From contig CBDCTJ010000007.1 of the NCBI GenBank assembly GCA_965222115.1, positions 2,720,001 through 2,784,000 on the forward strand: 64,000 nt of DNA, read 5' to 3'. Made by a program: the position numbers and the translations under genes. Under the pieces are notes generated by a model, which made no database searches, was not told where the DNA came from, and saw only the letters and a list, made by a program, of their open reading frames with translations. This stretch comes from Planctomycetota bacterium (GTDB lineage: Bacteria > Planctomycetota > PLA2 > JAEUHO01). Below are positions 7,958-35,561 of this stretch, piece after piece; position 1 is the stretch's first letter, and each line of letters opens with the position of its first letter.

Positions 7958-8170
7958 CGTCCACCGTTCGATGCGCAACGCGCAGATCAAAGATCTGCTG
8001 GTGCTTACTCAGGGTCTTCGCGCAAATGGCAATGCCATTTGCTCTTGACGTCCACGTTAAAGCGGCGCGAGTCGTTCATCGAATGCTCAAACCTGAGTCA
8101 GGGTAACGGGCGACGGAAACTTGGGAAACACGCCGATTGGTCCAGCGCGATCGGTACGCGCGGACGCTGC
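7958..8170 (-). repeat. Gene-less (truncated) copy of the type-A four-helix-bundle cassette end, including composite repeat core
   Basis: Colinear with 23930-24165 (shared GGTGCTTACTCAGGGTCTTCGCGCAAATGGCAA and TCCAGCGCGATCGGTACGCGCG); 40-bp core at 8064-8103 on the minus strand; no four-helix ORF follows. Confidence 0.85.
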
Positions 8171-8360
8171 GATGGCGTCATTCGGGTGATGGCCTCCACG
8201 ACACGTTGCCGTGTCACTCCCGATCCACACGCGGGTGTGACATGAGCTTCTTACGGTAGAAAGCGAGGACGGCGTCGCCGCCCGCGGCGTCAGATACTCG
8301 ATGCGCAGGGCCCAGCCATGGATGTGGTGAAAAGAGGGTCTGCGGCGAGGAGTCACGTTC

Positions 8361-9914
8361 ATGAGGTTTGCATTTCGACTCACTGTAGTGCTTGTGTGCG
8401 GGGCAGCGTTCGCGCTGACGCCCGCCGCCGATGCGCGCGAGAAATCCAAGGACGAAACGATTGTCAAGGGCAAGCTCGGCGCGGAACTCGATGAACGAGT
8501 CAGCGACAAAGTGCCTGAGTTTTGGGGGTCGGTGCTCGTTGCCAAGAAGGGCAAGGTGTTGTTGGCCAAGGGCTATGGCATGGCCGACTACAAGAACAAG
8601 CCCAACACGGCACGGACGCTGCACGAGCTCGCGTCGGCAAGCAAGCAGGTCGCGGGTACGGCCATTTTGCATCTTCAGCAGCGACGCAAACTCAAGATTG
8701 GCGATTCGATCGGGAAATATTTCAAGAAGGTGCCCAAGGAGAAGAAGGCCATCACAATTCGTCATCTTCTGACCCACACCTCCGGAATTTCCAGAGAGGC
8801 TGGAGTCTCTTACGCATCGCCCATCGACCGAAAGAACTACGTCAAAAAAATGATGGCCGAGCCGCTTGATTCCAAACCGGGTGAGACCTACGCCTATAGC
8901 AATGTTGGCTATGCCTTACTGGCGGCCATTGTTGAGCAGGTCTCGAAGATGACGTATGAGGAATACGTTGAGAAATACTTGTTCAAACCTGCGGGACTGA
9001 AGGATACCGGGTTTATCGGTGACAAGGATCTACAAGAGACAGGACGTGCTTCCGTGCGCAAGGGGCGACTTCGCGGCAAGACGGCCGCCGACTGGCATTA
9101 TGGGTGGGGCTACCGCGGGATGGGCGGCGTGGTCACAAGTGTCTTGGATCTACTGAAGTGGGACCGGGCACTGCGCGACGACACGATTCTGAAAGAAGAG
9201 GCACGCGAGGCGCTCTACATGCCCTACAAGAACTTCTATGCCTGCGGATGGGAAGTCGAACATACCGACCGAGGCACGCGCTGCGTGCATCACTCAGGTG
9301 GTGTTGAGGGCTATGGCACAAACGTCATTCGCTATCTCGAAGACGACGTGTGTGTGTTCGTGCTCTCCAACAAAGGCGACTCGGCCCACAAGGTATCGGC
9401 CGCACTCGAAGCGGTTCTTTTCAAGCCCACTTCGATTCAGGTGAGCATCGACGTGACACCCTACGGCGGTGGGGGCCGCACGCTCAAGACACCAACCACC
9501 CTCACGTGGGGCGTCTCTCGCAAGGGGCGAGATTTGGTGATTGAGGTCCTCGACAAAAAGACCGTTGTACTGGGACTGCGCTTGCCCAAGAAAACGTATG
9601 GTAAGAAGCTCCTGTTCGAACTTGAGCATTCGATTCAGTCGCGCGAATCCGATGAGAAGGCGTCCACATCGCAGTGTCAGGCCGAGCTCCACCTAGGGGG
9701 TTACGGCCCGTCCGCCAAGATCGTTCATCCTTTTGGTCAAGTGCGCTTTGCCGCCGAACACCGCGGTCGAACAACTACCGGCGAGCCGAAGATTGACCGA
9801 CGCGTGACACTGGTTCTCACCGATACACGCTCCGGCGGCATGACGGGCGTCGTGCTCATGAACCTCATCAGCGCAAAGGCGTTGCTCGAAAAACTCTCCA
9901 AAGCGGTTCGATAG
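8361..9914 (+). CDS. Secreted serine hydrolase, beta-lactamase class C/AmpC-like family, with C-terminal extension
   Basis: Signal peptide; SxxK (LASASKQ), LLTHTSG, YSN and HSGG motifs; GAGGAG RBS. Confidence 0.9.
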   Translation: MRFAFRLTVVLVCGAAFALTPAADAREKSKDETIVKGKLGAELDERVSDKVPEFWGSVLVAKKGKVLLAKGYGMADYKNKPNTARTLHELASASKQVAGTAILHLQQRRKLKIGDSIGKYFKKVPKEKKAITIRHLLTHTSGISREAGVSYASPIDRKNYVKKMMAEPLDSKPGETYAYSNVGYALLAAIVEQVSKMTYEEYVEKYLFKPAGLKDTGFIGDKDLQETGRASVRKGRLRGKTAADWHYGWGYRGMGGVVTSVLDLLKWDRALRDDTILKEEAREALYMPYKNFYACGWEVEHTDRGTRCVHHSGGVEGYGTNVIRYLEDDVCVFVLSNKGDSAHKVSAALEAVLFKPTSIQVSIDVTPYGGGGRTLKTPTTLTWGVSRKGRDLVIEVLDKKTVVLGLRLPKKTYGKKLLFELEHSIQSRESDEKASTSQCQAELHLGGYGPSAKIVHPFGQVRFAAEHRGRTTTGEPKIDRRVTLVLTDTRSGGMTGVVLMNLISAKALLEKLSKAVR

Positions 9915-9946
9915 CGTTCAACGGATGATGCCGGCGCAATTCACGC

Positions 9947-10576
9947 CTACTCATCTTCCCCTCGATGCGCCGTCGCTTCTTCGTCCACCCAATCCTCTTC
10001 TTCGTAGGACATGCCGCGGCGGCCGGGGACCTTGCGGGTGGGGCCGGATTTGTAGAGCGGGCAAGATTTGGGGCCGTAGCAGAAGGTTTCGCGGCGGTAG
10101 CGGCGCTGCTTGGGATTCCAGTGGTCGATGATCACTTCGACCGCCATTTCACAAGCCCACATGCATGAGACGCACATATTTGCGAAAGTGCGCGCGGCCA
10201 ATCGTCGGTGGCCGCGTTCGCGGTAGGTGGGGAGTTCCGGGGGGACGCCGAGAAAGGGAGGAGGTTGTACGAGTTTCACGGTTGAGGGACGTTCTGCTTT
10301 GAGGCGACTAATCTTATAGAGATCGGCCACCTCGCGTCGCGGTTCGGCAACGAGCACGCCCAATCCGGAGACGGTGTCGTCCGCGCGGAAGAGATGTTTC
10401 GATTGTGCGGCCTTGCCGATTGCGACTGCGAACAGCCGCTCTTCTTCGCCACATGTTCCATCGATTCGAAGGACATAGCCGAGGTAGCTGTGACTGCGCT
10501 GGTCAAAGCTCCTCGTGAGTCGGATTCGGGGCTGGACGGAGACGACGAGCCCCTTCCAGGCGATTTTGAAGGTCAT
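9947..10576 (-). CDS. Hypothetical protein with C-terminal Cys cluster
   Basis: 209-aa ORF with RBS-like AGGGA; CVSCMWAC...FCYGPKSC. Confidence 0.75.
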   Translation of the reverse strand: MTFKIAWKGLVVSVQPRIRLTRSFDQRSHSYLGYVLRIDGTCGEEERLFAVAIGKAAQSKHLFRADDTVSGLGVLVAEPRREVADLYKISRLKAERPSTVKLVQPPPFLGVPPELPTYRERGHRRLAARTFANMCVSCMWACEMAVEVIIDHWNPKQRRYRRETFCYGPKSCPLYKSGPTRKVPGRRGMSYEEEDWVDEEATAHRGEDE

Positions 10577-10719
10577 GGTATCCCTACTCTACATCTCAGG
10601 GCGTTCAAGCGCCACGCCTTCAGCATGGTTGTGCGTTCGGGCACGATCTGATAGCAGAGCGCGGCTTGAGCGACTGTGCGTGGTGGAGCAGTTTGCGTTG
10701 ACGTCCGATGTCCCGCTTT

Positions 10720-10839
10720 CCCGTGACCCGTGACCCGATACCCGGACTCAAGTGTGAGCGTCCGAAATTCGATTCACGCCAGCTCGTGGACGTGGACGTG
10801 GACGTGGACGTGGACGTGGACGTGGACGTGGACGTGGAC
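10720..10839 (+). repeat. Composite repeat: 3 heptamers + 40-bp core + (GTGGAC)9
   Basis: CCCGTGA CCCGTGA CCCGATA; core CCCGGACTCAAGTGTGAGCGTCCGAAATTCGATTCACGCC at 10741-10780; GTGGAC x9 at 10786-10839. Confidence 0.95.
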
Positions 10840-10841
10840 GA

Positions 10842-11216
10842 TCAAGGCTCGTCGAACCTTCGTTGAAGCACGAACAACATAGCGGCGGATCGCTCTAGTA
10901 TGTTCATGACACCTGAGATTGCGGCCTCGCTGGCGAGTCCGAGTAGTAGAGCCTGATGTAGAGCGGCAATGGCCTCGGTGCATTCGGCGTGTGCGATGTC
11001 GTACGCTTTGCGTTTCTCGGCTGGCCGTCGTTTCGAGAGTCCTTCGGCGACGTTTAGGGCAACGCTGATACTTGCGCGCCTGAGTTGATCGGCGAGCTTT
11101 GCGTGGCCACGAGGCCATGCACCGCAGATTGCTACGCACTCGACCGACGCGGCCTGCGAAGCACGGTAGACATCGAAGCGTTTGAGGTATTCGAGCGTGG
11201 AAGATGCGCTTGTCAT
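10842..11216 (-). CDS. Four helix bundle protein (23S rRNA IVP/TIGR02436-like), type A copy 1
   Basis: FDVY...LADQLRRASISVALNVAEG...YDIAHAECTE is the signature of this family; GGAG RBS. Confidence 0.9.
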   Translation of the reverse strand: MTSASSTLEYLKRFDVYRASQAASVECVAICGAWPRGHAKLADQLRRASISVALNVAEGLSKRRPAEKRKAYDIAHAECTEAIAALHQALLLGLASEAAISGVMNILERSAAMLFVLQRRFDEP

Positions 11217-11374
11217 GATGGAACTCCAGCGTGAAGGGATCGCAAGCCGTTTGCTCGCGTGTGCCCTTCACAAAAGAGCCGAAGGCGAAGGAGGGCACAC
11301 GCGAGCGGGTCGTACAAAGGAAGCCCTGCGCAAATGCGACAACTTGTTCTCAAGCTGGAGTTCCATCACAAGCG
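11207..11374 (-). promoter_or_regulatory. Structured leader of type A gene sequestering RBS and start codon
   Basis: In gene sense CGCTTGT-GATGGAACTCCAGC can pair with GCTGGAGTTCCATC-[ATG]-ACAAGCG; inner 15-bp stem GCTCGCGTGTGCCCT/AGGGCACACGCGAGC. Confidence 0.7.
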
Positions 11375-11421
11375 GCGCCCGCGCGTACCGGTCCGGTCGC
11401 GCATGAGTTACCGATGGCCTG

Positions 11422-11530
11422 CCCGGAATCCGATACCCGTCAACCGTTACCCTTTACCCGAAACCCGTCACCCGGACTCAAGTGTGAGCGTTCGATGGTC
11501 AATTCGCGCCGGTCTAACGTGGACGTGGAC
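11422..11530 (+). repeat. Composite repeat: 7 degenerate heptamers + core + (GTGGAC)2
   Basis: Heptamers 11422-11470; core at 11471-11510; shared between the divergent type A and type B genes. Confidence 0.92.
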
Positions 11531-11573
11531 GTCAAGTAGCGCACTAGCCGCGTGCGGCCGATACCGGATAAAC

Positions 11574-11736
11574 ACCGAACTGTCTGCTGTGTGACGTGAA
11601 GGCGCACTGGGCAACACCCTTTGGGAAGTGCTACGTGCATGCCCCATTCGCCATGAGGGCGAGGGCACGCACTCGCATTCCCGCGGGTGTTTCCTCGTGG
11701 AGCTTCTCGTATGTCACACAGCAAACAGTTCTCGGT
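11574..11736 (+). promoter_or_regulatory. Rod-like structured leader of type B gene pairing over the start codon
   Basis: ACCGAACTGTCTGCTGTGTGACGT (11574-11597) is near-complementary to ATGTCACACAGCAAACAGTTCTCGGT (11711-11736); nested stems AACACCC/GGGTGTT, GGGAAGTGC/GCATTCCC, TGCCC/GGGCA, TCGCC/GGCGA. Confidence 0.7.
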
Positions 11737-12097
11737 TTCCTCCACAGCTAGTCGGCTTGAGCGATTCGACGTGTATCGAATCGCGCGGCGTGCCGCTGCC
11801 AGTATTCACCAGCTTTGTGGATCGCTACCGCGAGGCAACGCCGAGCTTGCAAGCCAAGCTCGACGCGCCTCGACCGCCGTCGTTCTCAACATCGCTGAAG
11901 GCATCGGGCGCGCTGGCGCAGGCGCCAAGCACCGTTCGTTCTCCATCGCTCGCGGCGAGTGTGTCGAAGCCGCTGCGGCACTCGACCTCATGGATGCAAT
12001 GGGCATCCTCGCCAGCGCCCACGCCGCACCGACGCTTCGCGACCTTGACCGCGTTCGCGCGATGCTGAATGCGCTCATCCGCCGTTGGAGGGAGTGA
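11711..12097 (+). CDS. Four helix bundle protein, type B copy 1
   Basis: FDVY...LASQARRASTAVVLNIAEG...FSIARGECVE; ATG 11711 with GGAG RBS. Confidence 0.9.
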   Translation: MSHSKQFSVSSTASRLERFDVYRIARRAAASIHQLCGSLPRGNAELASQARRASTAVVLNIAEGIGRAGAGAKHRSFSIARGECVEAAAALDLMDAMGILASAHAAPTLRDLDRVRAMLNALIRRWRE

Positions 12098-12128
12098 AGC
12101 GTTCCCATTTATGCACAGCGTCGCGCAC

Positions 12129-12257
12129 TCCGTCACCCATTGTCCGTCACCCGTTACCTGTCACCCGTTACCCGGACTCCAGTGTGAGCGTCCGATAGTC
12201 GATTCACGCCTGCTCGTGGACGTGGACGTGGACGTGGACGTGGACGTGGACGTGAAC
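12129..12257 (+). repeat. Composite repeat: 6 heptamers + core + (GTGGAC)6
   Basis: Core at 12171-12210; GTGGAC x6 at 12216-12251, then GTGAAC. Confidence 0.93.
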
Positions 12258-12304
12258 GCGCAAATCCGTGCCGGGATCACACGTGCGATCTGCAATATCC
12301 GAAA

Positions 12305-12365
12305 GCCGTTACCCGACACCCGTCCCCCGGACACCCAACTGAGCATCCGACGAACGATTCGCGCC
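12305..12365 (+). repeat. Degenerate composite repeat: 3 heptamers + diverged core, no GTGGAC
   Basis: GCCGTTA CCCGACA CCCGTCC, then CCCGGACACCCAACTGAGCATCCGACGAACGATTCGCGCC (12326-12365), which aligns gap-free to the core. Confidence 0.75.
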
Positions 12366-12421
12366 GCACGCATCGATGGGTGACGGGGACTGTCCCCCCG
12401 CGCGGGGAGGCTAGGAGCCTC

Positions 12422-13354
12422 ATGATTGATCGCCGCCCTTCCGAATCCAGTACGCGCGCGCGTGTTGCGCAGCTCGATATGCGACTTGCCCTTGAGGGCA
12501 GTCAACTTGTGCACGGTGATTGTCTGGAAGTCATGCAGCGCCTGCCGGATGCGTGTTTGGATCTGATTTACATCGACCCGCCGTTTTTTACCGGCAGCAA
12601 AAAGTTGGGACCGCGGGACCTTGATGGCGAAACGCACGCGGCTCAATTCGATGATCACTGGCCCGGGGGATTGACGGCCTATTTGAGCTGGCTCATGCCA
12701 CGCATTGCAGATATGCATCGCCTGCTAAAAGACACCGGGTCCATGTATATCCATCTCGACTGGCATGCAGTGCATTACGTCAAGGTCGAGGCCGATCGCA
12801 TCTTTGGTTACGACAACTTTCTCAATGAGATTGTGTGGCTCTATGGACTGGGGGGGAGTTCCCCGCGCTACTGGCCGCGCAAGCACGACACGATTTTGTG
12901 GTACGCCAAAAATGCCAAACAACACTACTTCGTGGCCGATCGGATACCGGCCACATCGCAGCGTCTCAAGGGGCAGACCAAGAAGGCGCCCGACACGTGG
13001 GATATTCCAGCACTCAACAATATGTCTCGCGAGCGCTCGGGGTATCCCACACAGAAGCCGGAAGCATTGCTTGAACGCATTGTTCGAAGCTCGTGTCCCG
13101 AGGACGGACTGTTTGCTGACTTCTTCTGTGGCTCCGGTACGTCGTGCGTGGCCGCCGAGCGATTGGGACGCAAGTGGATCGCATCGGACACATCGAGTGA
13201 TGCGATTCAAACCACCGAGTCGCGACTGCATGCCTACCTTGCCGAACAAATTGCCAAGCGCCATCCCGGCCATTTGACGCGCGCCAAGGGGGCGACTTCG
13301 TCACGTCGAAAACGGCGCGTTCCGCTTCCGAGTTTCGTTGTCTTACGGGCGTAG
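12422..13354 (+). CDS. Orphan N6-A/N4-C DNA methyltransferase (beta class)
   Basis: HGDCL, LIYIDPPF (motif IV), YPTQKPEALLERI, DFFCGSGT (motif I); AGGAG RBS before ATG 12422. Confidence 0.9.
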   Translation: MIDRRPSESSTRARVAQLDMRLALEGSQLVHGDCLEVMQRLPDACLDLIYIDPPFFTGSKKLGPRDLDGETHAAQFDDHWPGGLTAYLSWLMPRIADMHRLLKDTGSMYIHLDWHAVHYVKVEADRIFGYDNFLNEIVWLYGLGGSSPRYWPRKHDTILWYAKNAKQHYFVADRIPATSQRLKGQTKKAPDTWDIPALNNMSRERSGYPTQKPEALLERIVRSSCPEDGLFADFFCGSGTSCVAAERLGRKWIASDTSSDAIQTTESRLHAYLAEQIAKRHPGHLTRAKGATSSRRKRRVPLPSFVVLRA

Positions 13355-15385: not shown

Positions 15386-17317
15386 ATGGCGGCAGCCGCC
15401 GTTCGACGCATCATTTTGGGAACTGCCGGGCACATCGACCACGGCAAGACCTCGCTCGTCAAGCGTCTCACCGCCAGTGAGGAGGCCGATCGCCTGCCCG
15501 AAGAGCGCACGCGTGGCATGACGATCGATATCGGCTATGCCACATTCATGTTGCCCGACGGCACGGAAGCCGGGTTGCTCGACGTGCCGGGTCACGAGAG
15601 TTTCGTCCACACGATGGTGGCGGGCGCCACGGCGATGGACGTTGCCCTACTCGTCGTGGCGGCCGACGACGGTCCCATGCCCCAAACCCGCGAACACATT
15701 GAGATTCTGGATGTGCTCGGCGTGAACCGGTTGGTCGTTGCGCTGACCAAGATCGACCTCGTGGATGCGGACATGGTCGAACTCGCCACCGAAGCGGTCA
15801 ACGAACTGGTCGAGACCACCTCATTGAAGGGCGCGCCCGTCGTTCCCGTCAGTTCGGAAACGGGCGAGGGTTTTGACGCACTCAAGAAGGCCATCGTCGG
15901 AGCAATTCCGAAGAGCCGGAAGGCCAAGGAGAGTCGCTTCGCCTTCCGCATGCCGATTCTGCGACGCTTCGATGTGGCGGGCCGGGGCGTCGTGGTGACC
16001 GGTATTCCGTTGTCCGGACACATCGCGGTGGGGGACGGGATTGAGATTCAGCCCATTGGCGCGCCGTGCCGGGTGCGGAGCATTCAAGTCCATCATCGCG
16101 AAGCCGAGGAGGCGCGCGCGGGTCATCGCACGGCCATGGCGATCAGCGACGTGAAAGCGAGTGCCATTCGTCGCGGCATGGTGGTGAGTCAAGCGGGACT
16201 TGTAGCGCCCACCACACGACTCGTCGCTCGCCTAGATTTGCTGGAGAGCGCCCGCAAGCCCATCCAACATCGTGATCGCGTTCGTCTTCACCTGGGGGCG
16301 TCGCAAACCGTCGCGCAAGTCCACTTGCCCTTGCGCAAAGCGGTTCCACCGGGGTCGAGTGAAATCGTGGAGCTTCAGGCAGTAGCCCCTGTGATCGCCC
16401 TTCCGGGGGACGCCATGGTGCTGCGCGAAGAGAATGCGGCATCAACACTGGGTGGTGGCGTGGTGATTGAGCCTCTAGCGCGTCGGCTCCCCAGTAAACG
16501 GCAGGGGCTAATCGATCGTTTGCGCGACCGCACAAATCACTTGGACTCTCCCAAACATCTCGTGGAGGCCATAGTCGAGGCCGCGGGGATGGATGGCTTG
16601 CTTGAGAGCGAGATCACGAAAACCACCTCGATTGTGCCCAAAGCGCTTTCCGGACTCATGCAGGGGCTTGCGGGCAAAAACACGTTGCGGCCCATCGGTC
16701 GCTCCGGTCGTTGGATCGCCCCCGGCCACTTTGGTTCGGTTCGGGATCGCATTGTCGAAGTCGTCAAGCGCCTGCACACCAAAGACGAAGCGGTGGATAG
16801 CTTGCCCATTGCACAGATTCGAAGTTCGCTTGGGCGCATTCACGAAGCCGTCTTCGATGAGGCCCTGCGTTCACTCACCGATGATGGGGAGTTGGTGCGC
16901 ACAGCGGGCGGCACCATCTACCACCATGAACACAGCTCCGAGCTACCTCCCAAGGACAAAGCCGTTTGCGAGCGCGTAATCAATGTGTTGGCGAAAGCCG
17001 AAGGGCGACCGCCAAGCGAAGAAGATCTTGCGGGTTTGGCGGGAATCTCCTCGTCGGACTTGAAGCGTGCGCTGCGGCTACTTGCGGCGCGAAATCTCAT
17101 TCTTCGAGCCGAACCCTATTGGTTTGAAGGCGCGTGGGTCGAGCAGTCCAAGTTGAAACTGGCCGAGATTGCCAAAGCACAAGGTGGATTTTCGCCGGCG
17201 GATGCCCGCAGCGCGCTTGACACAACGCGCAAGTGGATCATTCCGCTGCTTGAAGCGCTCGACAAAACGGGCTTCTCACGTCGGGCGGGCTCGAAGCGCG
17301 TCCTCCGCTCGAACTAA
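15386..17317 (+). CDS. selB: Selenocysteine-specific elongation factor SelB
   Basis: [29 protein letters not shown], plus C-terminal winged-helix [14 protein letters not shown]...RRAGSKR. Confidence 0.93.
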
Positions 17318-17336
17318 CGAGTTCGAGCTAGCGGCT

Positions 17337-18323: not shown

Positions 18324-18573
18324 GGCACTTCCTCGTTTTGGCCGCTTCAACCGCGCCCACCTGATATGAGATTCACGTCCCTGCACGTGTGTATCGGCGT
18401 CATCTTAGCCCGTTGGCACGCAGGGTCCTCGTCTGGTTCAGGCAAAATGAACGACAGGCAAAATGAACGAACCGAGCGCGACGGTCTGGTGGGCGTTGCC
18501 TTCGATTCGCAAAAACGAAGTAAACGCCCGAATACGCCGATGAACGTTCCGAGTCCCAAGTCCTTTCGCCGCG

Positions 18574-24113: not shown

Positions 24114-24163
24114 AGCTTGGAATGCGCGACCGGTTGCTCCAGCGCGATCGGTACGCGCGAACG

Positions 24164-24697: not shown

Positions 24698-24699
24698 CG

Positions 24700-24809: not shown

Positions 24810-24880
24810 CAACCGAGGCGCGCTGCTTTAGTGCGCGCGCGATTTGCACCCGGCACTATTTTGCGGGTACGGAGGCAAGA

Positions 24881-27409: not shown

Positions 27410-27595
27410 GGGGGCTCCTTCCGCCGGTTTGGGGGTTGGGATGGTACCCCCCGACCAAAACAGATACGACGCAATCCGATTCCACGAGGTTCCCCGGCGT
27501 GCGAAATGTCGTGTGTGTGCTGCACTTGCGTTGAGATGGCGGTGGTGCGGAGGCGTCGAATGAAGCGATGCTTCGCCCAGGGAGTTCAGCGTTTT

Positions 27596-29401
27596 ATGAA
27601 GGTTTCGTCCGGCAATCGGGGCTGGCTACTGGCACTTGGTGTGTCACTGCTCGTACTCCTTCCATTTGCCGGGACGCGTGCGCTTTTTGACGCCGATGAA
27701 GGACGCTATGCAGCGGTGGCGCAAAACATGGTTGCGCGTGGCGACTATGTTGTTCCCCATTTGAACGGCATGCCGTTCATGGATAAGCCGCCGCTCGTGT
27801 ACTGGATCCAAGTGATTGGCATTCACATCGCCGGCGCGTCACCCTTTGTTGCACGGCTACCCACCCTGCTTGCCGGTGCGCTTTGGATGGTGGCCATTTT
27901 TGTATTCTCCCTGCGTCTTACAAGAAGGCGAGAGGTCGCATGGTGTGCACTTGGCATCGCCGCTACGTCCGTGGCGGGCATTGTGGGATCTCGCGTGGGA
28001 CCGCAAATGGATATGCCGTTGGCCGCCGCGGTCGCGTGGGCGCTCTATGCCGGTCTACGCAAACTTGAGGGTGGCGGGCGTCGATTCGATGTTCTCATGG
28101 GGGTGGCGATTGGTTGCGGGCTATTGATCAAGGGGCCGTTGGTCGTCGCCGTAACGGCCCTGGTTGGTTGCATGTGGTGTTTGGCCGGCGCGCCGTGGCG
28201 GCGCTACGTACGGATCCTCTTCTCGCCACTGGCATGGGGCGTGGCGCTCGCGATTGCTGCACCGTGGTACGTGCTGGTTGAACGCGCGATGCCCGGATGG
28301 ATTCAACACTTCATCGTGTACGAGCACTTCGGTCGATTCTCGCGTGGGGATCATCGTAGCTTCCACCCGTTTTGGTTCTACGTGCCCATTGCATTGATCT
28401 ATGCATTTCCATGGACGCCCTTGCTTTGGCGCAAAGCACGTGGACAACGAGCCGTGCTGCACTCGTTTCTTGGTCCGTTTTCTCCACGGACCTGGCGCAC
28501 CACGCTTCGCGAATCGACCGAAATCGAATCCCGTGTCCCCAGTCGTCATCTGCAGGCCAGCACCGTTTGTCTTTGGTGGTTCGTTGCCGCGTTCTGTCTC
28601 TACAGCACGGCAACGCGAAAATTGCTCAACTATCTTCTGCCAGCAGCGGCGCCTTTGTTCGTGCTTGCTGGGGCGCGCCTTGCTGAACTACGAGGCTGTC
28701 TTCGCTGGACCTACCGCACAGGACTGTTCGCCTTTGGTGGTGGGCTGGTTGCCGCCGCGGCCTTGATTGGGACGGCGGTGCTTTTGCCGCTTCAAACCGG
28801 TGGCATTGACAAGGCGCTCGATGCGCCGCGTTGGCAGGGCCTCGTCATGCCTCTGAGCGTCGCTGGCGGCGTATTGCTACTTGGTCTGTGGTTCGCGAGC
28901 CGCATGCGCACGCAACGATCGTTGGTGTTCACCTTCGCTTTGGTCGCGTTTGCTTGGTGGTCGATCGACGTCGGATTGGCGCGCACATCACGGGTGGGAT
29001 CGGCGCAAGCCTTGGCGCGCGCGGTTGACAAGCACGTTTCAGAAGACGAGGCCCTCGTTTGCTTCAAGCGGTATCCGCAGGGGCTTGACTTCTACAGCAA
29101 GACACCGGCGTATCTGGCTGGTGGCAACTCGGGTGCATGGTTGCAGCGAGAAATTGTGGAACCGTATGCATCCATGGCAAGGAGTACACAGCATGCGCAT
29201 TCCAGGTTTCGGGGCGGTTTGCTAACGACGAAAGAGTTTGAGGCGTGGTGGCGCGGCGACGACATACCGGGCGTGCATGCCACTGTACTCTTGTGCCGCG
29301 CAGGTGAGTTGGTCATCTTCAATGGCGAGGTGATCGACGGTCCGTTCGCCGGTGCCGGGCGCACCGATTTGTGGTTGATTCGGCGGCGCACAAAGAAATA
29401 G
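27596..29401 (+). CDS. ArnT-like (GT83/PMT-family) membrane glycosyltransferase
   Basis: DADEGRYA, PHLNG..FMDKPPL.YW, LIKGP, APWY, HPFWFY, KLLNYLLP; many TM helices. The 5' extension to 26837 is spurious overlap with leuS. Confidence 0.88.
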   Translation: MKVSSGNRGWLLALGVSLLVLLPFAGTRALFDADEGRYAAVAQNMVARGDYVVPHLNGMPFMDKPPLVYWIQVIGIHIAGASPFVARLPTLLAGALWMVAIFVFSLRLTRRREVAWCALGIAATSVAGIVGSRVGPQMDMPLAAAVAWALYAGLRKLEGGGRRFDVLMGVAIGCGLLIKGPLVVAVTALVGCMWCLAGAPWRRYVRILFSPLAWGVALAIAAPWYVLVERAMPGWIQHFIVYEHFGRFSRGDHRSFHPFWFYVPIALIYAFPWTPLLWRKARGQRAVLHSFLGPFSPRTWRTTLRESTEIESRVPSRHLQASTVCLWWFVAAFCLYSTATRKLLNYLLPAAAPLFVLAGARLAELRGCLRWTYRTGLFAFGGGLVAAAALIGTAVLLPLQTGGIDKALDAPRWQGLVMPLSVAGGVLLLGLWFASRMRTQRSLVFTFALVAFAWWSIDVGLARTSRVGSAQALARAVDKHVSEDEALVCFKRYPQGLDFYSKTPAYLAGGNSGAWLQREIVEPYASMARSTQHAHSRFRGGLLTTKEFEAWWRGDDIPGVHATVLLCRAGELVIFNGEVIDGPFAGAGRTDLWLIRRRTKK

Positions 29402-29476
29402 ATGCGTCGCTCGCGCGTTCGCATTCATACAGTGTCGAGCGGTGTGACGAAAGCGCGGTCGCCAGCCACGGGCACG

Positions 29477-29526
29477 TACGTCGCACCACTTACGTCGCAC
29501 CACTTACGGCGCACCACTTACGGCAC
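29477..29526. repeat. 14-bp tandem repeat TACG(T/G)CGCACCACT x3.5
   Basis: Units start at 29477, 29491, 29505 and a partial one at 29519; immediately upstream of a GGAGG RBS. Confidence 0.85.
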
Positions 29527-29542
29527 ACAGGGAGGAATTGGC

Positions 29543-30082
29543 GTGAATCAGCGAGAGCCTCAGTCTGCATTGCCTCGCCCCGACAAATCCATGGCGTTCG
29601 TCGCATGGCTGCTACTCACTGCGGCAGTGATTGGTTTCGTCGCCTGGACAAGCAACCGGCCCACCTCGAATGTTCGCTCCTCCGAGGCCGGTCTACTCGC
29701 CGATGTTCGTGTGCGGCCCGAAGCCGACGGCGTCGCGCATGTTGGATTCACCTTGGGAGCGCCTTCACGCATTGCTATTCAAATCGATGGCCCGCCCGGC
29801 ACGATTGACGTTTCCGTAGGACTCGCCAAACCCGCTTCACCGGATGAAGGAGAATCGAAACGAGCACTGGCGCCTGCGTCTCTACAACGCGTTCGGGTGG
29901 AGCTACCCACGAGCGAACCCGTCTTGAAGCAAGTTCTGTTCCGGGTTGGCACCTACCTCACCGAGATTCGCTTTACGCCTTCTCCGTCTGTCACCCAATC
30001 GGCGAACGGGGCATCGAAACCGATCCGCGTGCGTGTGATTGCCACGCCGGAACGAACCCTAAGAGATCATCACTCCCAATAG
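29543..30082 (+). CDS. Hypothetical membrane-anchored protein
   Basis: GTG 29543 after GGGAGGA; N-terminal TM (AFVAWLLLTAAVIGFVAW) then a beta-rich domain. Confidence 0.65.
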   Translation: MNQREPQSALPRPDKSMAFVAWLLLTAAVIGFVAWTSNRPTSNVRSSEAGLLADVRVRPEADGVAHVGFTLGAPSRIAIQIDGPPGTIDVSVGLAKPASPDEGESKRALAPASLQRVRVELPTSEPVLKQVLFRVGTYLTEIRFTPSPSVTQSANGASKPIRVRVIATPERTLRDHHSQ

Positions 30083-30184
30083 ACCATAGGTAGAATGGCG
30101 GCACCGTCAGGAGGCTCCGCCTTGCTTCGACCCTATCTCTTGCGTCGACCCTGTCTTTTGCGCCGACCATGTGACTCTCGGAAT

Positions 30185-30727
30185 ATGTTGCGTGCGTTCT
30201 GCACACTGACGATGGGACTCTTGTTGCTCGCGGCGTGCGGTGAGGGCGAGTCGTCGTCAAACTCCAGCACACGTGCAGGCGGCAACGTCGAGGGAACGTG
30301 GGTTCCCGATGTGGACGAGACCATCCATCACGCGCGATTTCACGCATTCATGATCGCACGCCCCGATTCGCCCCCGCTCAAGGAGTTGATTCGCGCGTCG
30401 GAGGGGTTGGCCGAGGACATCAAGAACCGCTACGCAAAATCGAGCCTTCGACTCGTGCTGCGGAACAATTCGGATGCAGAGTGGACCATGGTCTCCAAAG
30501 ACGACGAAACCAGCAAAGAGACACGCCAGTTGTGGCGGGGCCGATGGAAGACGTTTGACGGGTATGTGGCGGCCGGCCTTTACTCGTCGGAAGATCCCAA
30601 TGCGGAACGGCCGTGGTGGATCATGTTTATACCCGTGGGTGATCGTCTGATGACGTATTGGCAAGTGCAGAGCGACCAAAATGGCATACGCTCTATGCCG
30701 TATTTCTTCCTGAAGCGCGCGAACTAG
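30185..30727 (+). CDS. Putative lipoprotein
   Basis: Lipobox LLLAAC, Ser-rich linker, VEGTW (lipocalin-like GxW). Confidence 0.7.
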   Translation: MLRAFCTLTMGLLLLAACGEGESSSNSSTRAGGNVEGTWVPDVDETIHHARFHAFMIARPDSPPLKELIRASEGLAEDIKNRYAKSSLRLVLRNNSDAEWTMVSKDDETSKETRQLWRGRWKTFDGYVAAGLYSSEDPNAERPWWIMFIPVGDRLMTYWQVQSDQNGIRSMPYFFLKRAN

Positions 30728-31011
30728 CGATCGCATGGAAGTCTGCTCGACATGCGCTCGCCATGATTACCGGCCCCGTTGAACTGCAAGCCGTTCGACC
30801 CGATGGCACCGATTACCGCACGTTGCTCGACGACGGACAGGTCAATACGGTTCCTCGTTGGTCCAGCGACTCAAAGAGCTTGTTCTTTCATCGCCTCGAC
30901 TTCGCCGATCTTCTCAGTGGTTGGAAAGCGTGTGAAATGGACTTCGATACTGGCGAGTTCGTAGCGATTGAGAATCTGGCGCACACGATTGATGTGTATC
31001 GGGCGAATTAG
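30728..31011 (+). pseudogene. Fragment resembling the C-terminus of a TolB/PD40 beta-propeller protein
   Basis: AVRPDGTDYRTL...VPRWSSDSKSLFF is a PD40-like repeat; under 100 aa, no signal peptide, no convincing start. Confidence 0.5.
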
Positions 31012-31066
31012 TGCTGAGTCTTTGCTGATAGGCTGAGCATAAAAATCTACTACTTGCAACGCCTTT

Positions 31067-31155
31067 GCCGATATTCGTCACCCGGACTCAAGAGTGAGCG
31101 ATCGGTGATCGATTCACGCCACAACATCAAGAGCAAATGGCTTCGACATTTGCGC
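31067..31155 (+). repeat. Solo composite repeat (core plus flank hairpin), no gene
   Basis: Core CCCGGACTCAAGAGTGAGCGATCGGTGATCGATTCACGCC at 31081-31120, followed by TCAAGAGCAAATGGC..CATTTGCGC as in the 8 kb and 24 kb flanks. Confidence 0.88.
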
Positions 31156-31184
31156 ATCGACGGGTGCGCAGTCAGTCCTCGTTC

Positions 31185-32429
31185 TTAGTACATTCGCCGA
31201 AATGCGACGCCTGGATAGTAAAACGACAGAATCTCGGTGTCGGTCATGCCCTTCTTACCCATTTCCATGGCGCCCCATTGGCACATGCCAACCCCGTGTC
31301 CCCAACCGCGACCCTGAATCGACCAGCCGTCTTTGGTGCGCTTGATGGCGCGAATGTTGTGAGACAACAGGCGTGCCACGGTGCGAAAGGTCGTGCCGGG
31401 CACGAGTTTGGTTCGCTTGGAGGGGCCGTAGACGATGTGAAGCTCCGCGGCCCAGTCACCGCGACCGCGTTTGGTCACTTGGATGGCGTGAATGGGCTTG
31501 CTCACGGGGCGGCCATCGGCCTTCATACCCGCGATGAGATCTTCATTGCTGACCTCTTTGGTCCACGAAAACTTGGGGCTCGTGCGGCAGTGGGGGCAGC
31601 GTACGCCTTGGAGTGCGCCCTCACCGTCGCCCGGATCAAGTCGTGACGTTTTCGCGTCGGTCGTATGTCCGCCACACGTGGACGCATAGTAAGCACTAAA
31701 CGGGCGCCCGTTGTAGGTCATGATCACGCCTGCCGTACTCTGCGCGGCGGCCACCATCTGAGGATAGGTCACGCCAGCGTAGTCGGGGATTGAATGCCCG
31801 CGATAGACCTGGCTGTGGGTGCTATCGAAAAGATGAAAGAACTTGGAACGCGCATCGGGTGTCGAGACGTGAATGTAGGCATAGGTGCGTGCCGTTACTG
31901 CCTGAGCGCGATAAGTAGCCGGTGCGGAATTGGGCGCCGCTTCGTTGGCAATCACGCCCGCGATGTAGTCCTCCATGGGGAGTTCATTCACAAATTCCAG
32001 CTGATTGCCGCGACGACGAACGAGGAGATTGCCTTCATAGCGAGTCGAATCGAGCGTGAACGTGCGTGACGTATTGAGTCGCAAAATGTCGGTGGCGTGC
32101 TCTTGACCGCGAAACGTGATGCCGCGCCGAGACGCGCTGACAGTGGTTCGAAACGAGGTGCGGCCCTTGGTGATACTGCGATTGCTCCGATCCTTCAGTT
32201 CCCATGATTGCGCGCCCACGACAAGTGCAGACTTTGCGCGTACGCTGCCAAGCCGAACACGAATGACCGGAGCTCGTGTGCCTGCAAGTAGCGGCGGGGG
32301 ATAGCGATCACCACATGCACTAAGCAGCAGGAGCAGTGCCGCACCCAGCAGCGTACCGAGGCCACGCCTCGACACGTGCCCACTCAACCGTGCCTTCACA
32401 TGGGTTGCTTTCGGACTATCCGAGCGCAT
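31185..32429 (-). CDS. SpoIID/LytB domain lipoprotein (lytic transglycosylase-like)
   Basis: VNELPMEDYIAGVIANE, AQAVTARTY, SQVY, YASTCGG, GRGWGHGVGMCQWGA, ILSFYYPG; lipobox LSAC. Confidence 0.92.
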   Translation of the reverse strand: MRSDSPKATHVKARLSGHVSRRGLGTLLGAALLLLLSACGDRYPPPLLAGTRAPVIRVRLGSVRAKSALVVGAQSWELKDRSNRSITKGRTSFRTTVSASRRGITFRGQEHATDILRLNTSRTFTLDSTRYEGNLLVRRRGNQLEFVNELPMEDYIAGVIANEAAPNSAPATYRAQAVTARTYAYIHVSTPDARSKFFHLFDSTHSQVYRGHSIPDYAGVTYPQMVAAAQSTAGVIMTYNGRPFSAYYASTCGGHTTDAKTSRLDPGDGEGALQGVRCPHCRTSPKFSWTKEVSNEDLIAGMKADGRPVSKPIHAIQVTKRGRGDWAAELHIVYGPSKRTKLVPGTTFRTVARLLSHNIRAIKRTKDGWSIQGRGWGHGVGMCQWGAMEMGKKGMTDTEILSFYYPGVAFRRMY

Positions 32430-32567
32430 GGCGTTCCCTCATCCGAGCCTTGCACACGACCTCTATGGGCTTTCGTAGATTCGTGGGCTCTCGTAGATAG
32501 GTCGGATACGGCACGGCATATATTCTGCAAAACCATCGACTCAATTGAGAGGAGAAGCCTTCGGGTC

Positions 32568-33668
32568 TCATGCCGGCTCGACCTGCGTGAAGGGAAAGAG
32601 GTCCGGATCACTTGAACCGGTGCCACCCGAACGGGGTCTTGGGGCGTCGGGAAACAACTCCATGCCCGCGGCGGAGAGCGCGCGTCCTCGGGGTGTCTTA
32701 ACAATCAGCCCTTGGCGAAGTAGATGGGGTTCGTAGACCTCTTCGAGCGTGCGTTCGTCTTCACCCACGGTGGCGGCCAACGTCTTGAGGCCCACGGGCA
32801 CACCGCCAGCACGTGCAAGGGCTTCCAAGAATAGGCGATCTACACGATTGAGGCCACGGTCGTCTACGCCCATGCGCGCCAAGCCGGCACGTGCGACTTC
32901 GACCGAAATATGATTGTTCGACTCGATTTGTGCCAAATCGCGAACACGGCGAACGAAGCGATTTACGACTCGGGGCGTGCCGCGCGCACGACCCGCTAGG
33001 TACGCGGCGGCCTCCGAATCGAGGCCAACGTTGAGAATGGTGGCGGTGCGCTTAGCAATTTTGCTAAGTACGTCGGGCGCGTACGGTTCCAGTCGCTCAT
33101 GAATCGGAAAGCGCGCACGCAAGGGCGCCGACAGCAGGCCTTCGCGTGTGGTGGCGCCAACCAATGTAAACTTGGGCAAGTCGATGCGAACACTGCGCGC
33201 ACTGGGGCCTTGGTCAATCATGATGTCGATGAAATAATCTTCCATCGCGGAGTAGAGGTATTCCTCGACGGCTGCCGGTAGTCGATGAATCTCATCGATG
33301 AACAGAATGTCACCCTCTTCGAGACGCGTGAGCAGTCCTGCGAGGTCGGCGGCGCGTTGGAGCACGGGCGCGGATGCCTCGCGCAGGCGTGTTCCGCGTT
33401 CGTGGGCCACGAGATGCGCAAGCGTTGTTTTCCCCAAACCCGGGAGACCGGATAGCAACAGGTGATCCAATACATCACCGCGTTCGGCGGCGGCGCGGAG
33501 TGCCAATGCGAGATTGTCGGCGACTACACGCTGACCAAGAAATTCGTCCAAACTGCGGGGGCGAAGATGTTGCTCCAGCGCTCGTTCTGCTGCACCCACA
33601 CTGGTGGCGCCCGTGACATTCGCCTCGGTATCGGCGGCATCTTGCTCGGATCGCGGCTGCTTGGACAT
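32568..33668 (-). CDS. ruvB: Holliday junction branch migration helicase RuvB
   Basis: LRPRSLDEFLGQ, GLPGLGKTT, FIDEIHRL, YSAMED, GATTR, RGTPR, YEPHL, TPRGR. Confidence 0.97.
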   Translation of the reverse strand: MSKQPRSEQDAADTEANVTGATSVGAAERALEQHLRPRSLDEFLGQRVVADNLALALRAAAERGDVLDHLLLSGLPGLGKTTLAHLVAHERGTRLREASAPVLQRAADLAGLLTRLEEGDILFIDEIHRLPAAVEEYLYSAMEDYFIDIMIDQGPSARSVRIDLPKFTLVGATTREGLLSAPLRARFPIHERLEPYAPDVLSKIAKRTATILNVGLDSEAAAYLAGRARGTPRVVNRFVRRVRDLAQIESNNHISVEVARAGLARMGVDDRGLNRVDRLFLEALARAGGVPVGLKTLAATVGEDERTLEEVYEPHLLRQGLIVKTPRGRALSAAGMELFPDAPRPRSGGTGSSDPDLFPFTQVEPA

Positions 33669-33967
33669 CGGTTCCTCAGATAGCTTGAATGGCTTAGATC
33701 GTGGGCGCGCCCCGATCCGGGTTTTAGAGGGCTGGCTTTCGAGGGATTGGATTTCCAGGGATTGAATTTCGAGAGCGGGAAAGGCACCTTCCCCCGGTAG
33801 GGCGACAGGATGGGCTCATGCTAGCACGGCCCTCTAAAGGGCCCCAAGGGGTTGGGGATTTATTGAGGATTGCCCCCAAGACATGGGCGTGTGCCTCCGT
33901 GGGGCCATGCATACGCTGCACCCGGTTCCATTGCGCCGTGCGGTGGGGGTGTTCGTAGCATCCCGCC

Positions 33968-34684
33968 ATGACAACGGCCCGGCGATTTGATGACGAGCAC
34001 GCCCGCAAGCGAGGGCGTCGCATCTCAAGGATGTTTGATCGCATTGCGCCCACCTACGACCTCCTCAATCACCTGCTGAGTCTCAATATCGACACGCGGT
34101 GGCGCAAGCAGGCCGTCAAGATGTTGAATCTCACCGGCAGCGAGCGCGTGCTCGACGCGTGTTGTGGTACCGGTGACTTGGCCGTTGCGCTTATGCAGGG
34201 TGGCGCGGGAACCGTTGCGGGTACCGATTTCAGTCCGGAGATGATTCGTCTGGCCAATGAGAAGGCTGGAGAGACGATTTCATTTCAAGTGGCCGACACC
34301 CTCGAACTACCGTTTGACGATCAGACCTTTGACGTGGCAACCGTTGGATTCGGCGCGCGCAATCTCGAAGATCTTGACGCTGGCTTTCGCTCGCTCCACC
34401 GCGTACTCAAACCGGGTGGTCGCATGTTGATTCTTGAGTTCAATCGACCCAAGAACCCCATTGTACGCACCGTCTACGGACTTTATTTCATGTTGGTGTT
34501 GCCCATGATTGGCAACATCGTCAGCGGCGGCGCCGACAACGCCTATGCCTACTTACCGCGTAGCGTGATGGCGTTCCCGAGCCCGGAGGTGTTGGCGGAG
34601 CGCATGAAAGCAGCTGGGTTTTCATCGGTAAACATTAAGCCGTTGACGTTTGGAATTGCGTATGTGCATCTTGCGATCCGCTAG
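33968..34684 (+). CDS. ubiE: Ubiquinone/menaquinone biosynthesis C-methyltransferase UbiE/MenG
   Basis: MFDRIAPTYDLLNHLLS, LDACCGTGD, GFGARN, RVLKPGG, AYAYLPRSV. Confidence 0.93.
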   Translation: MTTARRFDDEHARKRGRRISRMFDRIAPTYDLLNHLLSLNIDTRWRKQAVKMLNLTGSERVLDACCGTGDLAVALMQGGAGTVAGTDFSPEMIRLANEKAGETISFQVADTLELPFDDQTFDVATVGFGARNLEDLDAGFRSLHRVLKPGGRMLILEFNRPKNPIVRTVYGLYFMLVLPMIGNIVSGGADNAYAYLPRSVMAFPSPEVLAERMKAAGFSSVNIKPLTFGIAYVHLAIR

Positions 34685-34777
34685 GATCTCTCAAGCGTAA
34701 TCCATCCCTCGACATCTTCTCCCCAATCTGAATTTTAATCCCTTTCCTGACTCTGTTTCCGTATTCCGTTCTCTACT

Positions 34778-34858
34778 CCCGTCACCGTTACCCGAAACCC
34801 GTCACCCGCGACCCGATACCCGGACTCAAGTGTGGGCGCTCGATGATCGATTCGCGCC
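34778..34858 (+). repeat. Composite repeat: about 6 heptamers + core, no GTGGAC
   Basis: CCCGAAA CCCGTCA CCCGCGA CCCGATA then core at 34819-34858. Confidence 0.9.
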
Positions 34859-34912
34859 GGGACGTCGGCTTCAAGTAGCGCAATAACCGCACGCGTTCGA
34901 CGTCGATAAAAC

Positions 34913-35076
34913 ACCGAACTGATTTGCTGCGTGACGTGAATGCTCACTGGGCAACACCCTTTGGGAAGTGCTACGTGCATGCCCCATTCGCCACGAGGGC
35001 GAGGGCACGCACTCGCACTCCCACGGGTGTTTCCTCGTGGAGTTTCTCGTATGTCACACAGCAAACAGTTCTCGGT
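34913..35076 (+). promoter_or_regulatory. Structured leader of type B gene, copy 2
   Basis: Near-identical to 11574-11736; ACCGAACTGATTTGCTGCGTGACGT can pair with the first codons. Confidence 0.68.
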
Positions 35077-35437
35077 TACTTCCACGGCGGCTCGGCTTGA
35101 TCGATTCGATGTGTATCGAATCGCACGGCGTGCCGCGGCCAGCGTTCACAGACTTTGTGGATCGTTGCCGCGAGGCAACGCCGAGCTTGCAAGCCAAGCT
35201 CGACGAGCCTCGACCGCCGTCGTCCTAAACATCGCAGAAGGCATCGGGCGCGCTGGCGCAGGCGCCAAGCACCGTTCGTTCTCGATCGCTCGCGGTGAGT
35301 GCGTCGAGGCCGCGGCGGCTCTCGACCTCATGGATGCGATGGGCATTCTCGCGGGCGTCCACGCCGCACCAAGGCTTCGCGATCTGGACCGCGTTCGCGC
35401 GATGTTGAATGCTCTGATTCGCCGCTGGAGGGAGTGA
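35051..35437 (+). CDS. Four helix bundle protein, type B copy 2
   Basis: 120 of 128 aa identical to 11711-12097 by manual count. Confidence 0.9.
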   Translation: MSHSKQFSVTSTAARLDRFDVYRIARRAAASVHRLCGSLPRGNAELASQARRASTAVVLNIAEGIGRAGAGAKHRSFSIARGECVEAAAALDLMDAMGILAGVHAAPRLRDLDRVRAMLNALIRRWRE

Positions 35438-35446
35438 GGGGGATTC

Positions 35447-35561
35447 CCCGCCACCCGTCACCCGTTCCCCGAATCCCGTCACCCGGACTCAAGTTTGGGA
35501 CTCCGAAGGCGACTCACGCCAGTTCGTGGACGTGGACGTGGACGTGGACGTGGACGTTGAC
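35447..35561 (+). repeat. Composite repeat: 5 heptamers + 39-bp core + (GTGGAC)5
   Basis: Core at 35482-35520; GTGGAC x5 at 35526-35555, then GTTGAC. Confidence 0.9.

Follow-up and report, generated by a model that had tools for sequence, protein, structure and literature searches.

A family of PF05635 gene cassettes within a modular direct repeat, clustered near the inferred terminus of a planctomycete chromosome

The DNA analysed here (the window; 64,000 nucleotides, C7:2720001-2784000) comes from a planctomycete genome of 4.55 Mb, 59% G+C and seven contigs, and it carries four small genes of the PF05635 four-helix-bundle family, each of which sits inside a modular intergenic repeat. Genome-wide, we found 18 intact genes of this family, all of them beside the repeat and all within a limited part of contig C7, where most of the repeat loci are oriented with replication. 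On balance, we consider it somewhat probable that they form a lineage-specific family of non-autonomous cassettes, which would be gained and lost by repeat-by-repeat recombination and whose bias in orientation would depend upon replication.

PF05635/TIGR02436 proteins are very common, and the spread of ribosomal RNA (rRNA) intervening sequences (IVSs) is an old question. The present genome offers an unusually clean natural experiment: 18 intact paralogues of two subfamilies, all tied to one modular repeat, occur alongside a demonstrable insertion and copies that are solo or decayed, a conserved hairpin closes over the start codon, and the family is strongly linked to the direction of replication and to the terminus. 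Its crowding and polarity hint at an undescribed way of spreading or surviving.

Gene-repeat linkage and anatomy of the repeat

A first-pass annotation of this DNA had assigned the four window proteins to the four-helix-bundle family, and profile searches bear this out: they match PF05635 at 57.7-68.3 bits (cut-off 33.8), and TIGR02436 scores are 54.9 and 70.1 bits as against a cut-off of 24. All 18 genes that exceed the PF05635 cut-off lie on C7 between 2.274 and 2.848 Mb. They are intact open reading frames (ORFs) without exception (18/18), ten of type A, which measure 124 aa but for one of 129 aa, and eight of type B, each of 128 aa. The only sequence match in the PDB was 2GSC (XCC0516), with E values of 0.0026 for type A and 4.5e-7 for type B. 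In a tree of 30 proteins the genome's own A and B copies group together against those of its relatives, so that the A/B split looks lineage-specific, on proteins that are short and branches that are long.

The ten window copies of the repeat's core were made into an nhmmer profile, which was run over the 4.55-Mb genome with a count cut-off of E<=0.01. It recovered all ten at the places and on the strands first reported (E 2e-8 to 4.6e-16). The genome-wide search with the core that the annotation had recommended, run in this way as a profile search, gave 47 copies, 44 on C7 and 3 on C3. An independent repeat search of the window returned seven plus-strand copies of a 76-nt family, with the three minus-strand copies as their inverted partners, together with long matches, which cover both A genes over 585 nt at 84% and both B genes over 300 nt at 91%.

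The linkage between core and gene is close. The annotation had described a core on each side of the window genes, in direct orientation, with type A genes antisense and type B genes sense to the cores; the flanking cores were found at 4/4 window genes, and the orientation rule extends to the whole genome (A antisense in 10/10, B sense in 8/8). Every PF05635 gene has a core within 450 nt (18/18), and none lies away from a core. Cores stand on both sides of 14 of the 18 genes at E<=0.01 and of 16 at E<=0.2, the exceptions without a second core being the right side of the B gene at 2346018 and the left side of the A gene at 2671836. Four loci are double cassettes, and all four have the order core-A-core-B-core with divergent genes. 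The 44 cores on C7 divide into 28 that flank a four-helix-bundle gene and 16 that are gene-less. Given that 28/44 cores flank these genes and that no PF05635 gene is found off-core, the core is not a random repetitive extragenic palindromic (REP) element, and the alternative that it is a REP placed without regard to four-helix genes is ruled out by the genome-wide linkage.

The full repeat is a mosaic of a C3-tract heptamer array, the core, a GTGGAC array and a hairpin tail, and the A and B subfamilies share the same arrays, which speaks against a repeat word specific to each subfamily. Arrays and core therefore follow the composite element as annotated, with the corrections that the core measures ~47 nt and not 40 bp, and that the GTGGAC array, correctly placed downstream, runs to 0-12 units in genome copies where 0-9 had been given. 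The heptamers, of which 146 units were counted upstream of the cores, consist of a constant CCCG followed by three variable bases. At least four C3 tracts with loops of no more than 7 nt, the canonical G-quadruplex/i-motif pattern, occur in 32 of 50 array copies, and the whole genome contains only 195 such motifs. The core is not palindromic. Three modules come in addition to those first reported, namely a two-hairpin tail of ~95 nt (7957-8052 and 23929-24024), a distal leader block, and the hairpin leaders of the genes. The tail, whose pairing is kept through base changes, is present in many copies, and pieces of the tail and of one further block are also found alone elsewhere in the genome. 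An Rfam search of window 7000-37000 (E<=1) found no rRNA or other family. Decayed cassettes are seen as a leader fragment by the solo unit at C7:2443871, a B 3' fragment at C7:2359626 and the distal-leader remnant at window 8133-8166.

The window loci are listed below in window coordinates, with core positions as given by nhmmer.

7640-8166, minus strand: locus 1, a gene-less unit (from repeats and profile), comprising a distal A-leader remnant (8133-8166), a short C3-tract array, core 8060-8107, one or two GTGGAC units, tail 7957-8052 and block U 7640-7956
10712-10839, plus strand: left repeat of an A-B double cassette, with array ~10712-10736, core 10737-10785 and (GTGGAC)9 at 10786-10839
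10842-11216, minus strand: type A gene, 124 aa, PF05635, antisense to the cores
11190-11372, minus strand: A leader hairpin, covering the Shine-Dalgarno sequence, the AUG and the first codons
11373-11530, plus strand: middle repeat, between the divergent genes, with distal leader block, array, core 11467-11514 and (GTGGAC)2 at 11519-11530
11570-11745, plus strand: B leader hairpin, covering the Shine-Dalgarno sequence, the AUG and codons 2-8
11711-12097, plus strand: type B gene, 128 aa, PF05635, sense to the cores
12133-12367, plus strand: right repeat of the double cassette, with array, core 12167-12215 and (GTGGAC)6-7 at 12216-12257, then a spacer and a second, more diverged array with core 12322-12367
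23929-24817, minus strand: locus 3, where the BNR propeller gene and leuS enclose a single A cassette, which in element orientation has the order array, core 24730-24778, (GTGGAC)5, A gene 24323-24697 (plus strand), leader hairpin 24173-24344, distal block, array, core 24034-24082, (GTGGAC)2 and tail T 23929-24024
31047-31155, plus strand: locus 4, a solo core in the convergent gap by the SpoIID gene, with core 31077-31123, the first tail hairpin 31124-31155 and no clear heptamer array
34785-35565, plus strand: locus 5, where a single B cassette separates ubiE from mutL, with array, core 34815-34862, leader 34905-35050, B gene 35051-35437, array, core 35478-35525 and (GTGGAC)5-6
50000-56000: maximum of the cumulative GC skew, the inferred terminus (C7:~2.770-2.775 Mb)

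As first described, the cassettes stand between unrelated genes, and the neighbors are housekeeping genes: beta-lactamase-like, N6/N4 methyltransferase, RecJ, BNR propeller, SpoIID, RuvB, UbiE and MutL. What the annotation named leuS is a conserved 842-aa ORF whose identity does not come from Pfam. Block U (window 7640-7956) follows the tail at three loci and occurs also at C7:2276124, 2280868, 2284051 and 2299409 and at about eight other places; its central ~75 nt are found alone on C1, on C3 and across C7 and look like a separate small repeat family. Elsewhere in the window, a 14-nt unit is repeated four times in tandem at 29473-29528, directly 3' of the end of a PMT-type glycosyltransferase ORF, and bears no relation to the composite repeat. 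Next to recJ lies a gene for a SelB-type selenocysteine elongation factor (15386-17317), so the organism probably uses selenocysteine. Contig C6 (48 kb) has 39.7% G+C as against 55-59% in the other six contigs and could represent a plasmid, a phage or contamination from binning.

Selection, age and the leader hairpins

The copies of both types are old. For the A genes, the ratio of nonsynonymous to synonymous divergence (dN/dS) is 0.11 at a dS of 0.69 (36 pairs), and for the B genes it is 0.08 at a dS of 0.58 (28 pairs); each copy is kept functional by purifying selection. The B copies are more alike the nearer they lie on the chromosome (Spearman 0.60, permutation p 0.007).

Upstream of each gene is a leader that folds into an extended hairpin of ~170 nt, in which a segment far upstream pairs with the region of the Shine-Dalgarno sequence and start codon, so that the structure covers both of these as well as the opening codons of the gene. 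The A leader folds at -81.8 kcal/mol (z -6.0) and the B leader at -92.2 kcal/mol (z -8.6), and in neither case did any of 200 shuffles do as well. The structure is kept in consensus folds of ten A leaders, with three doubly changed pairs, and of eight B leaders, with one; a longer B alignment holds a further compensatory A/U exchange, which turns codon 5 from Lys to Asn. Identity among copies is 86-89% in the leaders, 67-68% at third codon positions and 92-95% at first and second positions, which indicates that the leader is constrained about as strongly as the protein. Comparable structured leaders were seen by eye in two of the relatives (G003 and G020), and among metagenomic relatives the leader z-score is below -3 in 13 of 44 cases vs 2 of 34 downstream control windows. 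Pairing between the upstream and downstream flanks was no better than in shuffles (RNAduplex, in eight type A genes of the 18 genes).

Insertions, polarity and the search for an enzyme

The comparison with relatives covered 30 genomes: 18 belong to the same family, 11 to the order and one to the phylum, and none shares the genus. The clearest case is that of carA and purA, which are adjacent on one strand in 16 of the 20 relatives searched; in the other four they are on different contigs, not adjacent, or not found. The two matches are 15-233 nt apart in 14 of the 16 relatives and 1118 nt apart here, the space being filled by an A cassette and its repeats, and the conserved purA 5' region resumes directly after the cassette. 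The A cassette between carA and purA is thus an insertion into a conserved spacer. The wider gaps of G006 (859 nt) and G005 (1073 nt) hold ORFs without a four-helix-bundle profile match; these extra carA-purA ORFs (G005:C45:6900-7960 and G006:C6:476970-477820) may mark a recurrent landing place. In the reverse case, G003 has a four-helix-bundle gene with a hairpin leader, in antisense, between two permease-operon genes whose orthologues here (60-64% identity) lie 110 nt apart. PF05635 copies number 0-21 per genome among the 30 relatives, with a match in 12 and none at E<=0.001 in 18.

The first-pass annotation had proposed a mobile or recombining cassette. The carA-purA insertion, the G003 case, the range of 0-21 copies and the solo and truncated copies support gain and loss; active movement was not seen. 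The cassettes are scattered over a normal region of the chromosome and are not an island. Even in the densest stretch (C7:2.666-2.695 Mb, six loci) the intervening DNA encodes ordinary core functions, and the genes between loci include carA, purA, cdsA, phoH, an Iso_dh-family dehydrogenase (isocitrate/isopropylmalate) and an NADH:quinone oxidoreductase/Mrp antiporter-type subunit.

Related layouts occur outside this lineage. G020, from another family of the same order, has 21 PF05635 copies, including divergent pairs flanked by a composite repeat of its own, in which a different core, unmatched by our core profile, lies between hexamer arrays, one of them a C3-tract array. In G001 complementary hexamer arrays stand on both sides of the gene, and in G013 long C3-tract arrays stand on one side. 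The type A protein matched 63 loci in metagenome contigs, the longer matches being at most 48% identical, and no orthologous sites were found among them. Arrays (at least four units, period 5-10, within 450 nt) were counted at the 35 loci where both flanks reached at least 250 nt, the other 28 of the 63 having shorter ones; they occur at 21 of the 35 vs 13 of 228 and 8 of 300 control windows. Both layouts are represented among these metagenomic relatives, with 88-nt complementary arms at L152 and direct arrays at L113 and L122, with genes in both orientations. A search of genome contigs with leuS found no close relative (best match 57% identity). PF07596, tried as a check on the planctomycete label, had no match, and the controls gave none either.

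Old copies under purifying selection could also make up a multigene family with no mobility of its own, which grew by segmental duplication and in which the repeats serve as a shared promoter, operator or terminator. The conservation of leaders and flanks, which resembles that of regulatory DNA, fits such a family, as do the greater likeness of nearby B copies and the presence of a core upstream of every gene. However, the duplicated blocks end within tens of bases of the repeats and no host flank is co-duplicated, the carA-purA case is a clean insertion in a conserved spacer, and 16 of the C7 cores are gene-less. A sigma-70 scan of 10600-12450 found no promoter, which is weak evidence as the consensus may not be the host's; the same interval has two terminator-like sites, both inside the A gene. 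We regard segmental duplication as unlikely.

The loci also show a regularity of place and direction. On C7, cumulative GC skew is lowest at ~0.58 Mb and highest at 2.770-2.775 Mb, the latter inside the window at ~50-55 kb; on C1, C3 and C5 the skew is negative throughout. When grouped, the repeats form 29 loci, of which 26 fall within C7:2.275-2.936 Mb (0.66 Mb, 15% of the genome). Left of the skew maximum 17 of 21 loci are on the plus strand, and on the minus strand are all five to its right on C7 and two of the three on C3. Altogether 24 of the 29 loci are co-oriented with replication and five are opposite (one-sided binomial ~3e-4, for loci that are not independent), and in the co-oriented state the C-rich heptamers are on the lagging-strand template. 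Gaps between convergent genes hold 16 loci as computed, or 17 after correction of one ORF call at leuS. Since 14 of the 16 are co-oriented, the direction of the neighboring genes does not explain the polarity.

Such polarity would fit transposition coupled to the fork, in which a non-autonomous unit, either of the IS200/IS605 group of insertion sequences (a palindrome-associated transposable element, PATE) or like a REP with its REP-associated tyrosine transposase (RAYT), is moved as single-stranded lagging-strand template by an HUH (Y1) enzyme acting in trans. The convergent-gap loci, where neighbors cannot set the orientation, speak for it, as do the lack of target duplications and terminal inverted repeats and the tail hairpins conserved by compensatory changes. 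Ton-Hoang and colleagues reportedly described, in 2010, a replication bias of IS200/IS605 insertions. There are two Y1 matches in the genome, at 1.07 and 1.41 Mb, and one intact gene, of 153 aa, at C7:1411691. However, that gene is 0.9 Mb from the nearest locus, and it was rejected as the cognate enzyme or RAYT because its flanks share no module with the element. The core is without a conserved hairpin. As to hairpins near the two ends of the unit, the picture is mixed: the tail has two, the left end is a tandem array with none, and no cognate TnpA came to light. PATEs and REPs are not known to have internal direct repeats, tandem arrays or a distribution restricted to the terminus, and the copies are old. 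Taken together, fork-coupled transposition by such an enzyme seems to us rather unlikely.

The distribution around the terminus could instead reflect a host function. The arrays would then be polar, terminus-centred sites for ring-forming proteins, which might organise the chromosome end, pause forks or aid segregation, and the genes would be a local source of the protein. The switch of orientation at the skew maximum agrees with this, and so do the purifying selection on 18 paralogues and the makeup of the arrays, whose spacers vary around an invariant C3/G3 tract. Set against it are the specificity of core and arrays to a genus-level lineage and the 18 of 30 relatives without the gene family, from which it follows that the function is not conserved; five loci are oriented the wrong way, and the sites are insertions in conserved spacers. 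We judge a host function of this kind very unlikely.

The annotation had also suggested a search for a recombinase, HUH or reverse transcriptase (RT) gene flanked by the core. None was found in the genome, so any enzyme would have to act in trans. Seven tyrosine recombinases (PF00589) were matched, two of them in the cassette region of C7 (2.41 and 2.445 Mb); these two, the only ones of the seven scanned, score no more than 24.7 bits on the integron-integrase profile TIGR02249 (cut-off 265). One of them, 1.1 kb from the solo core C7:2443746, was considered as a partner and set aside as an island gene that is not an integron integrase. Its island (C7:2444242-2450000, L106) carries the tyrosine integrase, an excisionase-type helix-turn-helix gene and two rve-type insertion-sequence transposases, and it abuts a leader-only A cassette, whose gene may have been removed by the island or its insertion.

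Seven RT matches include two near-identical three-copy sets, of 445 aa and 515 aa (C7:881482, 2631845 and 3037923; and C3:81659, C7:1004494 and 1984989), which to judge from their multi-copy identity are probably group II introns. These genes, and the membership of the cassette proteins in the family of Avd, which works with RT on structured RNA in diversity-generating retroelements (DGRs; PMC10053308), raise the idea that a transcript bound by the Avd-like protein is copied by a genomic RT and integrated at forks, as in DGR retrohoming or group II intron retrotransposition. The long, structured leader would suit such a route. Intron retrotransposition into the lagging-strand template gives a strand bias that matches that of the cassettes. 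However, no RT gene adjoins a cassette; the nearest, C7:2631845, is 1.2 kb from a core, but it is one of an identical, dispersed three-copy set, and the other two copies are nowhere near a core. No template/variable repeat pair was found around the genes, only the composite repeats, and A and B lie on opposite strands of one unit, so that no transcript is sense for both. Spread through RNA is, in our estimate, highly unlikely.

We return to the recombination of repeats, which we favor. A cassette would consist of one PF05635 gene, A or B, with its own ~170-nt hairpin leader, inside a modular intergenic repeat. Because direct repeats lie on both sides, a gene plus one repeat would be a unit able to enter or leave a resident repeat, and repeat-by-repeat recombination could give core-A-core, core-B-core, core-A-core-B-core and solo cores. 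Such unit exchange appears to be the simplest model that yields every form seen: the direct flanks, the fixed orientations, the A-then-B order, and the solo and truncated copies. The exchange might be carried out by host homologous recombination or by a site-specific activity in trans. The annotation's enzyme acting in trans agrees with the lack of a core-flanked gene for it, but recombination between direct repeats by host functions explains the layout without a dedicated enzyme. By analogy with Avd on DGR RNA, the A and B proteins may act on the element's own nucleic acid, be it the arrays or the leader hairpin. The polarity could come from an insertion step that depends on the replication strand (fork-coupled, single-stranded), or from orientation-dependent survival of structure-forming arrays.

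Several points weigh against unit exchange or limit what it accounts for. Recombination between repeats explains neither the arrival of a first repeat at a new gap nor the polarity. On neither strand do 49 aligned cores share a consensus secondary structure (RNAalifold), and inspection of the five window loci by eye showed no target-site duplications or terminal inverted repeats; thus, nothing marks the core as a recombination site. A dS of ~0.6 points to ancient copies and not to a recent burst, with turnover slow or ceased, and the A copies are not more alike where they lie closer together (Spearman -0.28, p 0.95). The genomes searched included none of the same genus, and the core pattern had no matches in metagenome contigs. 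At the ubiE-mutL junction, where the annotation had looked to relatives for empty or single-repeat alleles, the relative with the convergent arrangement (G003) holds a 258-aa ORF and not an empty site. Among sequencing runs, the stretch was found in four DNA-type runs of a single study and in no RNA run. The circle junctions that the annotation had proposed were absent from these four, the low-depth contigs of which were compared with window 17001-37000 and stop at the arrays, and no contig bridged an empty allele. Contig joints of two kinds ("opposite strand" and "goes back") were considered as circles and rejected, as they match other genomic copies of the repeat. With regard to the leader, the antisense strand is the more stable in 18/18 copies, by 0.7-13 kcal/mol. 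On that count the argument from wobble pairs for a role at the level of the mRNA fails, and the hairpin may act in mRNA, in antisense RNA or in DNA.

A bolder reading would make the cassettes a new class of mobile element without a nuclease or recombinase of its own, in which a ring-forming protein acts at forks upon the G-quadruplex/i-motif-capable arrays and the hairpin, so that insertion or retention succeeds in one orientation only, and best near the terminus. We hold this to be quite doubtful. If it were true, however, PF05635 proteins would have a common function on nucleic-acid structure, in rRNA IVSs, as stand-alone genes and as Avd.

Comparison with known systems

Outside DGRs, PF05635/TIGR02436 proteins are described as functionally uncharacterised in PMC3936711, PMC11270868 and PMC4990558. 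Their genes have been found inside cas operons (PMC3936711) and in rRNA insertions of bacteria of the candidate phyla radiation (CPR; bioRxiv 10.1101/2024.02.27.582315), and the proteins are homologues of Avd (PMC10053308). In the full-text literature, supplementary tables being outside the search, we came across neither stand-alone four-helix-bundle cassettes flanked by tandem arrays nor a replication polarity of such cassettes.

The ORF-bearing IVSs of 23S rRNA, the closest documented relatives of the cassettes, are regarded as selfish elements that have a terminal stem as their border and are cut out by RNase III (PMC4990558); that of Coxiella burnetii measures 428 nt and contains an S23p ORF (Warrier et al. 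2016, PMC4990558). The cassettes resemble them in protein family (PF05635/TIGR02436), in their compact design of a single small ORF with structured flanks, in a sporadic distribution that reads as horizontal or selfish spread, and in that neither encodes an enzyme for movement. In contrast to IVSs, the cassettes lie between protein-coding genes and not in a 23S rRNA helix (9, 25 or 45), their flanks are direct composite repeats and not an inverted-repeat stem around the ORF, their long hairpin is upstream only and closes over the start codon, and they comprise two subfamilies in fixed opposite orientation, with 18 copies and replication polarity. The likeness to Avd and DGRs is that of homologous four-helix bundles, and the 2GSC structure of XCC0516 is pentameric, with five chains of that sequence; here, however, there is no adjacent RT, no template/variable repeats and no target gene.

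Among DNA elements, miniature inverted-repeat transposable elements (MITEs) differ by their terminal inverted repeats and target-site duplication, neither of which was seen by eye at the five window loci. With IS200/IS605 elements the cassettes share the replication orientation bias and the lack of target duplications and terminal inverted repeats, but they have no linked TnpA and no clear subterminal guide/hairpin architecture, with two conserved hairpins in the tail and a tandem array at the left end, and they contain internal arrays and direct repeats.

Bacterial interspersed mosaic elements (BIMEs) and REPs of enterobacteria and the BOX elements of pneumococci are modular extragenic repeats with variable internal units and a preference for convergent gaps. 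Modularity, variable unit number and the convergent-gap preference (16-17 of 29 loci) are all found here as well. The differences are that the present repeats regularly enclose a protein gene, have neither a palindromic core nor a cognate RAYT, are confined to 15% of the chromosome and follow the direction of replication.

Integron cassettes and clusters of attC sites lacking integron-integrases (CALINs) alternate gene and repeat, with the repeats in one orientation, promoter-poor single ORFs and an enzyme acting in trans. The cassettes described here have the same alternation, uniform repeat orientation and mostly promoter-poor single-ORF cargo, as well as "empty" single-repeat sites and, if there is one, an enzyme in trans. 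They depart from integrons in that the core is not an attC-like hairpin and no integron integrase was found (best TIGR02249 score 24.7 bits, for two of the seven PF00589 matches), in that the loci are dispersed, and in that the cargo belongs to one protein family.

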